Source: Candidatus Woesearchaeota archaeon
GTDB taxonomy: Archaea > Nanobdellota > Nanobdellia > Woesearchaeales > GW2011-AR9
Reading direction: 5' to 3'
Assembly (NCBI GenBank): GCA_964201585.1
Contig: CAXNDX010000001.1
Coordinates: 1 to 34,723, forward strand
Length of the DNA stretch: 34,723 nt
Part shown: piece by piece, positions 25,164-34,723 of the stretch
Layout of the letters: each line of letters starts with the position of its first letter
Numbering within the stretch: position 1 is the first letter of the stretch
Notes under the pieces: generated by a model
What the model was told of the DNA's origin: nothing
Databases searched by the model: none
Seen by the model: only the letters and a program-made list of their open reading frames with translations
Made by a program: the position numbers and the translations under genes

Positions 25164-25994
25164 TTACTTCCCTTTCCTCACAAACGCATGCTTAATTTCA
25201 TCGCCATCAAACCCTTCCGGCGCTTTTCCCGTCATCGCATAATGATACAACGCCGTCAAGTAAATCCCTTGTAAACTCGCACTCACAACACTCAACCCCA
25301 CCCAATACACTAAAACAATAACTCCCACAATTAACACCGCACTCAGCGAACCACTTAATAACGCAATTCCTAACGGCACAATACCAAGTACTCCCAGCAA
25401 AAAGAATATCCCTCCCATCGAAAACTGCCCAACAACCGTCTCCCCCCACGTTTTCTTCAAAATATGCGTAGATCCTTTAATCGATTCAAACACCGATTTA
25501 TTCTCAAAAATCATCACGGGAACCACAAAAAAAGTAAGCAGCGTCCACGCCATCCCCAAGAGAGACAACACAATTTGTCCTACAAAATTATTCTCTAACT
25601 TATCTGAAATCATGCGTAAAATTAACCCAACCGTCGCTGAAATTACCGCCCATAACAAAATATTTGGCAAATGCTTAACCGCCGCATTCATTCCATCTTT
25701 AACCGTCGGATCTCCGCCTTGCAGTCGTATCCGCGCACACGCCACTAACCCTACATTAAAAAAAATCACAATAAAATAGCTTAAGATATAATACACAAAT
25801 AATAAACTATATAACATCACTCCTGGCGCAAATAACTCTGCTACAAATAACGGAATCACAAAAGACAGCAATAGCCCCATTGTAATAATACCTGACAGAA
25901 TCGGAAACCACATCATCTCCTTATCTTTTAATAAGATAGCATAACTCTGCTTCACAAGTATCCAGCTTCTTGACCAAGTTTCAAACATAACCAT
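25164..25994 (-). CDS. Multi-pass membrane protein, family not recognised
   Basis: 276 aa with about six hydrophobic helices. Confidence 0.65.
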   Translation of the reverse strand: MVMFETWSRSWILVKQSYAILLKDKEMMWFPILSGIITMGLLLSFVIPLFVAELFAPGVMLYSLLFVYYILSYFIVIFFNVGLVACARIRLQGGDPTVKDGMNAAVKHLPNILLWAVISATVGLILRMISDKLENNFVGQIVLSLLGMAWTLLTFFVVPVMIFENKSVFESIKGSTHILKKTWGETVVGQFSMGGIFFLLGVLGIVPLGIALLSGSLSAVLIVGVIVLVYWVGLSVVSASLQGIYLTALYHYAMTGKAPEGFDGDEIKHAFVRKGK

Positions 25995-26014
25995 CTACAA
26001 CTCTCGTTCTATTT

Positions 26015-26188
26015 TTAAAACTTATGGAGAAACTTCCTCATCCGAAAACCTTTCCTAAACTGTTCGCGCAGTGCTTTAGAATCAACTTGTGTTAAAATCC
26101 TTTTCAATTTCTTCTCCCCATAGGGGATATACCTCCATTTTAATACGCAACTTTCTTCATCATTAATATTTTTGATACAAACATCCAT
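26015..26188 (-). pseudogene. Truncated vapB paralog (internal in-frame deletion, no PIN partner)
   Basis: MDVCIKNINDEESCVLKW-RYIP-YGEKKLKRILTQVDSKALREQFRKGFRMRKF matches the N- and C-termini of the 82-aa VapB at 27490-27738. It lacks the central RHH helices. Confidence 0.5.
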
Positions 26189-26445
26189 ATTTACATAAAA
26201 ATTAGCGAGAAAGCCTCCAGCTTTAGCTGGAGGATGAATCGCAGTACGCTGATTTTTATGTTCAAGAAAATATGCAACGACATATTTTCTGAACAGAAAA
26301 CCGAAACAATCGGTTTTCTTGTTCCGAAAACTCGCCAATGTAGGCGAGGGCGTAAAGCCACGGCTTTTAGCCCGCGGATAGTTGCCGCAAGGCAACTTGA
26401 GAACCGCAGTGACCCTAGCCCGAGTAGGCGAGTTTTCGTTACACT
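26189..26445 (-). ncRNA. GC-rich, highly structured element of unknown class between the duplicated vapB promoter and the vapB remnant
   Basis: A 12-bp closing stem (26325-26336/26427-26438) encloses two hairpins: 26348-26373 and 26374-26407 (tetraloop GCAA on the + strand). Three more hairpins follow at 26291-26324, 26265-26290 and 26214-26233, then T5 on the - strand. Confidence 0.4.
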
Positions 26446-26496
26446 TAACTTGCAGAACTCTTTAAACTTTTCTCTATTTTATAACTTGTTATACTT
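26446..26496 (-). repeat. vapB promoter/operator repeat, copy 1
   Basis: Matches 27748-27798 at 48 of 51 positions. Contains TATA (TTTAAAGA on the - strand, 26459-26466) and the palindrome tataac-tt-gttata (26480-26493). Confidence 0.8.
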
Positions 26497-26497
26497 C

Positions 26498-26839
26498 TCA
26501 TTTAAATCCACTTGGGCCAATGGTTCGAAGAATATGCTTTATCTCATTAATTGTTTCCTGTTGATGATTTTTATCTGACATTCGTACGAATTGTAATAAC
26601 AGGTCAATCAATTTTTTCTCGTCAAGGCATCGTAATCTGAAGCCATCTGTAATGAAATAAACTCTAAAATTCTTATATTTTAATTCTTTTATTACAATTC
26701 CACCAACAGTACCTAGAATTTTTCTTTTATGTGGTGATGTTTCAAGAGATTCTAATAAATCAAGTATTTCGTGTGCTTCGCCTTTAAATTTAGTTGAAAT
26801 TTCTTCAAATAAAGACTTTACGATTTCAATTTTGGCCAT
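26498..26839 (-). CDS. RelE/ParE-superfamily toxin-like protein
   Basis: IVIKELKYKNFRVYFITDGFRL is typical of RelE/HigB-type toxins. Overlaps the upstream small gene by 22 nt. Confidence 0.55.
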   Translation of the reverse strand: MAKIEIVKSLFEEISTKFKGEAHEILDLLESLETSPHKRKILGTVGGIVIKELKYKNFRVYFITDGFRLRCLDEKKLIDLLLQFVRMSDKNHQQETINEIKHILRTIGPSGFK

Positions 26840-27030
26840 CTTTTATTTAATTCTTTTCTTGCTTCGTCTATCGACAGTGTGTCTTTTGAAGAGAATAAAA
26901 ATTGGCGTAATTGTTCTTTTACAGCGAGATCGTACATTCTTTTGATGATGTCTTCATAGGTATCTTCTTTGGAGCCAAAAGTACTTATCTGTTGTTTTGT
27001 TTCCGCGCTGATTTGGATAGTTGTGTTCAT
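26818..27030 (-). CDS. Small antitoxin-like protein (RHH-like N-terminus)
   Basis: The first ATG gives MNTTIQISAETKQQISTFGSKEDTYEDIIKRMYDL. The track start at 27081 is GTG. TTTATATA lies upstream. Confidence 0.5.
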   Translation of the reverse strand: MNTTIQISAETKQQISTFGSKEDTYEDIIKRMYDLAVKEQLRQFLFSSKDTLSIDEARKELNKRWPKLKS

Positions 27031-27090
27031 TCTATATCTACTATAGTGGCCATAGTATATAAATATTTCGCCAAAATTCACTCCAAATCC

Positions 27091-27489
27091 CTACAATTCC
27101 AAAATCACTTTCTTTAACCCTGGCACTCTCTTAAAATCACTATCTAACGTCAATAATGTATCTCCTTTCTCCATTGTCACGGCTGCGATAAATAAATCAA
27201 ATTGTGCAATTCCTAAACCTTTCTTTAACATCTGATGCAGCACCTCAGAAAAAAGTAAACCGCTGCGATACGTTGTTTGTAAAATTGTGTATTGTTCTAA
27301 CCTCTCTAATATCCTATCTTTATTTTTATCATTCTTGCCTAAAATCCCATAATAAAATTCGCAAAAAGTGAAGATCGTAATTGCCAATTCCACATCCGGC
27401 GCATCTTTTAACACCGCAATTTGTTGAATAATCTTTTCATTTCCTTTTTCTACTTCAATTAATACGCTTGTATCAAGTACAAATCCCAT
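27091..27489 (-). CDS. vapC: PIN-domain toxin VapC
   Basis: MGFVLDTSVLIE, then FCEFYYG, then LLTLDSDFKRV. The start codon abuts the vapB stop. Confidence 0.85.
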   Translation of the reverse strand: MGFVLDTSVLIEVEKGNEKIIQQIAVLKDAPDVELAITIFTFCEFYYGILGKNDKNKDRILERLEQYTILQTTYRSGLLFSEVLHQMLKKGLGIAQFDLFIAAVTMEKGDTLLTLDSDFKRVPGLKKVILEL

Positions 27490-27738
27490 TCAGAACTTCC
27501 TCATTTTAAACCCTTTCCTAAATTCTTCACGTAGTACCTTAGAATCTACTTGTGTTAAAATTCCCTTTAATTTTTTTTCTCCATAAAGAACCTTCTCCCA
27601 ATTACTTCCCTGACATGCACTATGATGTTCTTTGATGACTTTTGCAAAAAAATCCCCCATCTTTACTCCATGCCGTATTGATTCTGATTTAAACACACAC
27701 CATTCTTCTTCATTTATATTTTTGATACAGACATCCAT
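27490..27738 (-). CDS. vapB: RHH-type antitoxin VapB
   Basis: VCIKNINEEEWCVFKSESIRHGVKMGDFFAKVIKEH is a ribbon-helix-helix pattern. TTTAAATA is centred 26.5 nt upstream of the ATG. Confidence 0.7.
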   Translation of the reverse strand: MDVCIKNINEEEWCVFKSESIRHGVKMGDFFAKVIKEHHSACQGSNWEKVLYGEKKLKGILTQVDSKVLREEFRKGFKMRKF

Positions 27739-27747
27739 CTCTTCACC

Positions 27748-27798
27748 TAACTCGCAGAACTATTTAAACTTTTCTATATTTTATAACTTGTTATACTT
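27748..27798 (-). repeat. vapB promoter/operator repeat, copy 2
   Basis: TATA at 27761-27768 and palindrome tataac-tt-gttata at 27782-27795. Paralog of 26446-26496. Confidence 0.8.
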
Positions 27799-27827
27799 TT
27801 TTTAAGATAAAATAACCTTTCATACCC

Positions 27828-34031: not shown

Positions 34032-34723
34032 ATGATTATCACAAATTATATCTCTGAAATCAGTCGCTATCCTAATCTCACAAGAGAAGAAGAATACTAT
34101 CTCGCACAAAAAGCAAAATTAGGAGACAAAGAAAGTAAACATACTCTCATAAAATCAAATCTTCGTTTTGTTGTCTATCTTGCTAAAAAATATCATCATC
34201 CTAAATACAACAATTTAATTGACCTCATTCAAGAAGGCAACATTGGTCTGATCAATTCCATAGATAGATACATACCCCAGTCTGGCAACAGATTAATAAC
34301 CTATGCCGCATACCACATTAAAGAACACATCATTACTTACTTGAAAGATAATCGATTTCCCATCGAGACGACAACAGAAGAAAAACGTCTCATTCCTAAA
34401 TTAAATCAATTCAGACAACAATACACCCAAGAAAAAGGAACTATTCCCTCTCTTGAAGAAATTACTTCCTGGCTCAATCAATATGCCCAAAAAAGATATG
34501 ACTCAACCGATGCCCTTTCTTTACTAGAACTCAGCCAGCAATCTCTAATCTATTTAGACACTCCTCTTAACGATAAGAAAACAGAAAGCTGGCACGATCG
34601 CATTCCCCATTCTACCCTCACAAGTTTAGATCATCTCGAACAACACAACTATCAATCAATAATTGAAAAAACAATTGACGCTCTAGAGATAGAAGATAAC
34701 ATAAAATATATCCTCCTCGCTCA
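34032..34723 (+). CDS. Sigma-70-family protein (regions 1.2, 2, 3 and the start of 4); 3' end lies outside the window
   Basis: Absent from the track because it runs off the window without a stop. YISEISRYPNLTREEE (region 1.2). LIKSNLRFVVYLAKKY...LIDLIQEGNIGLINSIDRY...ITYAAYHIKEHI (region 2). GTIPSLEEITSWL and IYLDTPLND (region 3). Confidence 0.85.
   Translation, partial: MIITNYISEISRYPNLTREEEYYLAQKAKLGDKESKHTLIKSNLRFVVYLAKKYHHPKYNNLIDLIQEGNIGLINSIDRYIPQSGNRLITYAAYHIKEHIITYLKDNRFPIETTTEEKRLIPKLNQFRQQYTQEKGTIPSLEEITSWLNQYAQKRYDSTDALSLLELSQQSLIYLDTPLNDKKTESWHDRIPHSTLTSLDHLEQHNYQSIIEKTIDALEIEDNIKYILLA

Follow-up and report, generated by a model that had tools for sequence, protein, structure and literature searches.

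A non-coding, GC-rich block of 248 bp in the genome of an uncultured groundwater archaeon is probably a palindrome-rich, mosaic interspersed repeat, that is, a non-autonomous mobile element of the PATE, MITE, or BIME type. It occupies positions 26195 to 26442 of the window, by which we mean the whole stretch of 34,723 nucleotides that was analyzed. An earlier note on this DNA had offered a hairpin-rich, PATE-like mobile element as one of several readings, and this reading held up in kind because a second copy lies in unrelated flanks, relatives lack the element at the corresponding site, contigs break k-1 nucleotides into it, and it has modules in common with a multi-copy repeat of a related MAG. 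We file it as PATE/MITE/BIME-like and not as a proven PATE, since no transposase (Y1/HUH, TnpB, or DDE) was found in the ~95 kb of this genome that was read in total, nor beside any copy in relatives. One point against mobility is that only two copies of the exact variant are known.

The element is a new family within an already known class of selfish repeats rich in hairpins, from an archaeal lineage that has received little study, and the outcome is a reclassification, not the discovery of a new type of system. Palindromic repeats of the interspersed sort are familiar from bacteria and haloarchaea, but descriptions of them from uncultured groundwater archaea, with their small genomes, are scarce. 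Such genomes are usually regarded as streamlined and poor in mobile DNA. The repeat family breaks assemblies, adjoins promoters, stop codons, and tRNA genes, and can give a gene a 250-nt structured leader. It is relevant to MAG quality, to annotation, where it mimics an RNA gene, and to local gene expression.

Probable insertion into a duplicated vapB locus

The window comes from an archaeon and encodes deoxyhypusine synthase and a ribosomal protein L10/P0 with the archaeal insertion domain. Its G+C content is ~35%. The earlier note had described a GC-rich, structured block behind a duplicated vapB promoter, and both parts of this description were borne out. The G+C fraction is 0.455–0.46 between 26189 and 26445 versus 0.29–0.36 in the flanks, and the two promoter copies (26442–26496 and 27744–27798) are identical at 51 of 55 positions (93%). 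The duplication extends into the gene, with 81% identity in the N-terminal part of vapB (26137–26195 versus 27687–27745) and 80% in the C-terminal part (26031–26122 versus 27494–27585).

The duplicated promoter region (26444–26496, - strand; 93% identity to 27744–27798) is A/T-rich with TATA-like boxes, which suggests that it acts as a promoter, and the element cuts it off from its gene. What is left of that gene, vapB' (26015–26188, - strand), was delimited by alignment to its paralogue. It has 57 codons with an internal deletion, is not accompanied by vapC, and gave no Pfam match. The remnant abuts the leftover 3' tail of an AAA_14/DUF4143 gene that relatives carry at this place, and the last ~30 nt of this lost ATPase gene are still recognizable directly after the vapB' stop codon. 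The ATPase gene is replaced here by a strain-specific island of 1.8 kb (26030–27827). This island contains vapBC and a DUF7557/113-aa gene pair, after which come the promoter copy, element, and vapB remnant.

Set against the intact paralogue, copy 1 is an insert that separates the vapB' ATG from its promoter. Its limits (26195–26442, no strand assigned) come from alignment to the intact paralogous promoter-vapB junction, with the right border fixed by the second copy. The extent of the 257-nt interposed block of the earlier note is corrected to 243–248 bp with the right border at 26442, after TTAC. The predicted transcription start does fall at the edge of the element, as had also been pointed out. 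However, this coincidence loses its value as independent evidence for an RNA gene because the insertion went into a leader only ~5 nt long.

Eighteen syntenic loci were fetched from relatives. Fourteen are of the AAA_14 type (~86–92% identity in DUF6159, or membership in the same 90% TrmB cluster) and four, L007 to L010, are of the P0004 type (71% DUF6159 identity). The gene order is Peptidase_M74, AAA_14/DUF4143 ATPase, DUF6159, and HATPase in 14 of the 18 loci, and the spacer between the ATPase gene and DUF6159 is 26–33 nt in the AAA_14-type loci. The two P0004-type loci that reach the site, L007 and L008, have an unannotated 294-aa gene instead, with a spacer of 44–45 nt before DUF6159. The element was absent from the syntenic site in all 18 loci. 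In loci from relatives, Rfam returned only tRNA matches. A true empty site of the same allele was found in no sister strain for either copy, which counts against mobility; for copy 1 such a site would read AAGTGTAAATATGG.

Second copy, contig breaks and borders

The earlier note had suggested looking for additional copies, and a second one is present on the same contig (L039 17816–18079), 14.5 kb from copy 1 and ~6 kb past the end of the window. The copies are 100% identical over window positions 26227–26356 (130 nt) and ~98% identical over 26357–26442 (86 nt); they differ by two substitutions, one insertion, and one end. Both end on the same base, the last of GGCGAGTTTTCGTTAC, and their flanks are unrelated directly after ...CGTTAC. 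Copy 2 lies among unrelated genes, at a distance of 11 nt behind the stop codon of an orphan gene of 164 aa for which no homologues were found. It does not have segment 26195–26226 of copy 1, in place of which its - strand goes on as GTTCTCTACATAG. A hairpin module of 45 nt is nested in the middle of the three-way junction of copy 2, after position 26356, and the two substitutions beside this module create a perfect 7-bp hairpin, CCGCGGG/CCCGCGG.

A discrete RNA gene with its own promoter and an oligo-T tract had been another proposal, and copy 2 does not support it. No TATA-like A/T-rich box was seen upstream of copy 2, and the T5 tract sits in the copy-1 segment that copy 2 does not have. 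The promoter beside copy 1 is just that of vapB', which the element interrupted.

Assemblies break at the element. Two Logan contigs that approach copy 1 from its promoter (L021 and L022) and one that approaches copy 2 (L045) have their last 30-mer, GTAACGAAAACTCGCCTACTCGGGCTAGGG, in common. These contigs, from two sequencing runs, were taken to be built with k = 31, and 30 nt equals k-1. Stops exactly 30 nt inside the element are what the collapse of two copies with different flanks in the de Bruijn graph would be expected to give. Breakage by repeats could also raise the suspicion of an assembly chimera or artefact. However, we give this a negligible probability, given that the junctions are identical in two MEGAHIT assemblies (ERZ27280223 and ERZ27280297) and in the Logan contigs of two further runs.

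Copy 1 is flanked by a direct repeat, TTACA, read from the sequence at 26191–26195 and 26439–26443 (+ strand); the probability of such a repeat by chance is 0.9% (5 nt, with ±3 nt of slack). TTAC at 26439–26442 is common to both copies and also precedes the left end of copy 1. Because it is present at the border of copy 2, TTAC is either part of the repeat or a strict target site. Going by these letters, the TTACA repeat could be either a 5-bp target duplication (TTACA/TGTAA) or a target oligonucleotide with the sequence TTAC. At its other end, copy 2 lacks a matching direct repeat. The nested 45-nt module, which stands directly after GTAA, has a target duplication of at most 1 nt. Terminal inverted repeats are absent (the best end-to-end match is 10/23), and the far ends of copies 1 and 2 differ, so that the common border is known at one end only. 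Palindromes lie near both termini: a 14-bp end hairpin at 26194–26260, and an arm of the 12-bp junction stem that ends 4 nt from the other border.

Folding, modules and related repeats

The element folds with extreme stability on either strand. The minimum free energy of the RNA is -111.4 kcal/mol for the - strand (z = -10.5) and -111.7 kcal/mol for the + strand (z = -10.9), and none of 200 shuffled sequences was as stable. Folding with DNA parameters gave z = -10.3. Only 2 and 4 G-U pairs occur on the two strands among ~85 pairs. Equal folding of both strands with so few G-U pairs points to DNA palindromes rather than to an RNA made from one strand, and no strand is singled out for an RNA.

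Folding reproduced the architecture given in the earlier note, namely a 12-bp stem, a 114-nt three-way junction, and three further hairpins including one with a UAAA loop; the features below carry no strand assignment. The junction domain (26325–26438) was delimited from folds and copy-2 alignments and is closed by the pairing of 26325–26336 with 26427–26438 (CGAAAACTCGCC / GGCGAGTTTTCG). A GCAA loop on the + strand of the junction and two copies of GTAGGCGAG on the + strand, both noted before, can be read directly from the sequence. In the - strand view, three more hairpin domains follow the junction, the last of which holds CCUCCAGC-UAAA-GCUGGAGG. Two of these hairpins, GAACAGAAAACCG-AAACAAT-CGGTTTTCTTGTTC (26291–26324) and AGAAAATATG-CAACGA-CATATTTTCT (26265–26290), were found by folding and are identical in copy 2. 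They have a common AGAAAA/TTTTCT foot and differ in four upper pairs, all of them compensated. The long end hairpin seen in the folds (26194–26260) consists of CATAAAAATTAGCG...CGCTGATTTTTATG around CCTCCAGC-TTTA-GCTGGAGG, and its left arm (26195–26226) occurs only in copy 1. We rejected a snap-back origin of this arm because its middle is not the reverse complement of its partner. All four stems between 26194 and 26438 have feet that are alike: AGAAAA...TTTTCT twice, CGAAAAC...GTTTTCG, and ATAAAAAT...ATTTTTAT.

Three of the six reading frames across 26189–26445 are free of stop codons. The open -2 frame enters the vapB' ATG in frame (ORF 26015–26395), and in copy 2 it has 75 further open codons. 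Open frames of this sort are reminiscent of palindromic elements for which insertion in frame is tolerated. The three stop-free frames, joined and searched among 5.8e9 proteins, gave no relatives.

The statement that the block matches no known RNA class was upheld: no Rfam model reached its gathering score in the window, a search of 25900–26700 at E ≤ 10 produced nothing but noise, and ARAGORN detected no tRNA or tmRNA. SRP RNA, RNase P RNA, group II intron domain V, hammerhead and other small ribozymes, and H/ACA and C/D sRNAs were rejected because their defining motifs were absent or the Rfam models silent. An integron attC site was rejected for want of a GTTRRRY core, a CRISPR array because the 'spacers' are constant, and a tRNA intron with a BHB motif because the 12-bp stem has no bulges.

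One module of the junction (26376–26409, no strand assigned; it reads CACTGCGGTTCTCAAGTTGCCTTGCGGCAACTATCC on the - strand) recurs in hairpin repeats of related MAGs, as found by blastn and a pattern scan. The blastn matches, to L002/L014, L018, and L015, are 82–90% identical over 28–34 nt, and the pattern scan found the module on five contigs of MAG CAYSCV01 and on one of CAYJTE01. CAYSCV01 (GCA_964429715.1; ~90% protein identity to the window) has a hairpin repeat of ~170 nt on five contigs, with four of the five copies at contig ends. Parts of this repeat are homologous to the 34–45-nt junction piece at 26376–26409 and to the 45-nt insertion nested in copy 2. Its copies have a sharp common terminus, ending in GCAAAGTTCTCTATA, and its modules vary in order and number, including 73-nt tandem arrays. 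CAYJTE01 has another version of the hairpin repeat. On the + strand the loop of the module is GCAA in the window and in CAYJTE01 and GTAA in CAYSCV01. The copies in related MAGs are intergenic, lying in both orientations beside RIO kinase, TruD, a tRNA, an AsnC regulator, and a ribosomal-protein neighborhood.

Several features close to these copies were also recorded. A tRNA-Ala(CGC) with an intron of ~85 nt in the T-loop lies directly downstream of a repeat copy in CAYSCV01 (L018 6420–6581, - strand); ARAGORN missed it and Rfam detects only its 5' part. In CAYJTE01 (L015 600–870, - strand), a tRNA with an intron precedes an incomplete repeat of its own 3' half, in which a hairpin-module block of ~82 nt separates the variable arm from the T-arm. 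Next to this arrangement is a run of N, so that it may have arisen artificially during scaffolding. Toxin-antitoxin pairs of the MazEF type occur within 1–2 kb of repeat copies in related MAGs (L012 1071–1636 and L015 1702–2317; compare vapBC in the window).

Searches in larger collections found no close copy of the window-type variant in GTDB representative genomes, JGI metagenomes, or IMG/VR. A degenerate multi-seed search using a translated + frame against GTDB genomes, JGI metagenomes, and IMG/VR gave no relatives, and it likewise missed the window itself. From 274 kb of related sequence, a covariance model of the junction domain (R1) recovered the two copies and otherwise only weak partial matches at the known module. 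Comparison by blastn with phage and plasmid collections returned short chance matches only, and the stem-pair pattern had one GC-rich chance match in IMG/VR (L001). The module pattern in JGI metagenomes matched only a GC-rich bacterial sequence, an ambiguous 2-kb contig (L026), and a multi-copy repeat of ~350 nt in a MAG labelled Bacteroidaceae (L013 5490–5512, L016 272–294, and L019 7500–7522). This last repeat, near which no transposase was seen, has a 24-nt hairpin, GTTCAGAAGTTGCCTTGCGGCAAC, in common with the element; the match is probably due to chance.

Known systems, mechanism and alternatives

The PATEs of Haloquadratum walsbyi are gene-less derivatives of IS200/IS605-type elements. 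Their palindromes lie near the ends, inverted terminal repeats are absent, the terminal oligonucleotide is conserved, and there are heterogeneous versions as well as small repeats nested within the palindromes (PMC3119063). Our element resembles them in being too short for a protein, in the absence of terminal inverted repeats, in its palindromes near the ends, and in its short conserved border oligonucleotide, here TTAC. It is also similar in having homogeneous copies (>98% identical) next to heterogeneous relatives with only short common pieces, and a small repeat nested in a palindromic part. TTAC is also the target of IS608. In contrast to PATEs, no IS605-type parent whose ends match is known, neither tnpA nor tnpB turned up in ~95 kb, and the body of the element goes beyond two end hairpins in forming a closed multi-hairpin domain. 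Its 5-nt flanking direct repeat, too, could be a target duplication; neither IS200/IS605-type elements nor PATEs are known to make one.

As a comparison, MITEs such as Sulfolobus SM1–SM4 and the Correia/NEMIS elements are, like our element, non-coding, multi-copy, and intergenic sequences of 150–300 bp that are strain-specific and often lie by promoters, and the possible 5-bp target duplication of copy 1 would fit as well. The absence of terminal inverted repeats (10/23) and the difference between the far ends of the copies do not. REP/BIME mosaics and REPINs are bacterial and are mobilized by RAYT transposases; no such system is known from archaea. The likeness to REP/BIME consists in short hairpin modules of variable order, number, and orientation, in tandem arrays, in extragenic positions including just after stop codons, and in hairpins with conserved feet. 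By contrast, the modules are unrelated in sequence, the variant in the window is a single closed domain of much greater length, and no RAYT (Y1 HUH) gene was found in the sequence examined (precomputed Pfam lists). The omega RNA (reRNA) scaffolds of TnpB at the right ends of IS200/IS605 elements are similar in being structured domains of 100–250 nt that end at the element border, with a short motif (here TTAC) at the opposite border in the position of the TAM. Unlike at these loci, no TnpB was seen, and there is no Rfam or sequence similarity.

If the element is mobile, copy 1 would have entered the leader of ~5 nt that separated the TATA-type promoter of the vapB paralogue from its ATG, either next to TTAC or with generation of a TGTAA/TTACA duplication. 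Mobilization may have occurred in trans, by an IS200/IS605 TnpA-like or RAYT-like HUH transposase that recognizes hairpin feet on single-stranded DNA. Such a mechanism fits the absence of terminal inverted repeats and the nested module without target duplication; on the other hand, the 5-bp target duplication reading counts against the IS200/IS605 type because those elements are not known to make one. A probable side effect is that the captured promoter drives transcription of the element, which would then form a long structured leader before the dead vapB' and DUF6159. If a partner enzyme came to light, the sharply defined TTAC border together with the nested modules would offer a compact system in which to study hairpin-directed transposition in archaea.

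Extreme fold stability, the GCAA/GTAA GNRA loop, and compensated sister hairpins would also fit selection at the level of RNA. The RNA carried by the repeat could then be the functional entity, either as an omega-RNA-like guide scaffold of an IS200/IS605-derived PATE or as a paralogous small RNA family, and many PATEs do encode omega RNAs that are used in trans (PMC10055086). In the omega-RNA version, the transcript would come from the + strand and end at the ...CGTTAC border, and the 3' flank would serve as guide for a TnpB encoded elsewhere. Consistent with this, the junction domain abuts the one sharply conserved border, TTAC is immediately 5' of the other end in a TAM-like position, the + strand tetraloop is kept in both other MAGs (CAYJTE01, CAYSCV01), and both substitutions by the copy-2 insertion restore a perfect 7-bp hairpin. 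We nevertheless regard a functional RNA as unlikely, because folding is equally good on both strands and nearly free of G-U pairs, the junction is interrupted in its middle by a 45-nt insertion, family members lie in both orientations relative to neighbor genes, Rfam is silent even at E ≤ 10, and neither tnpB nor tnpA is present in ~95 kb. Far less credit still goes to the idea of a cis-regulatory leader (riboswitch-like, as raised in the earlier note, or attenuator) for the DUF6159 membrane protein. It is true that a promoter precedes the element and that vapB' and DUF6159 follow it on the same strand, and the two copies of GTAGGCGAG allow alternative pairing. However, synteny contradicts this role, since DUF6159 follows the preceding gene after only 26–45 nt, without the element, in every relative examined. 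The same sequence also occurs behind an orphan gene that is unrelated, 11 nt from its stop codon, and no Rfam model matches; we therefore consider such a leader highly improbable.

The location of copy 1 in a strain-specific toxin-antitoxin cassette island of 1.8 kb would suit a non-mobile remnant that was copied once by recombination, such as a scar of the ATPase cassette replacement or a piece of an integrated plasmid or virus (an att site or a single-strand origin). Only two copies of this variant are known, and the 73-nt tandem module arrays in a relative suggest slippage or recombination. A remnant of this kind is nonetheless improbable, as copy 2 lies among unrelated genes with no common flank, the copies in related MAGs are dispersed beside housekeeping genes, and phage, plasmid, and IMG/VR collections hold no true match. 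Slightly more doubtful again is that the hairpin modules are the RNA scaffold (guide-RNA-like or protein-bound) of an undescribed mobile system in small-genome groundwater archaea, or are modules of 36–45 nt that reshuffle by a transposase-independent, hairpin-templated mechanism. Either version would explain the mosaic architecture, the stop-free frames, and the perfect stems restored after insertion.

Two further observations concern the wider contig. An ORF with Sigma70_r1_2 and Sigma70_r2 Pfam matches lies at the end of the window (34032–34723) and runs on into L039 (11118–11990), on a contig that is otherwise archaeal. Beyond the start of the window and near the contig end (L042 15488–19835), a gene for a TPR-like protein of 1307 aa adjoins a 138-aa 23S_rRNA_IVP (Avd-like) gene, and this pair could be part of a diversity-generating retroelement.
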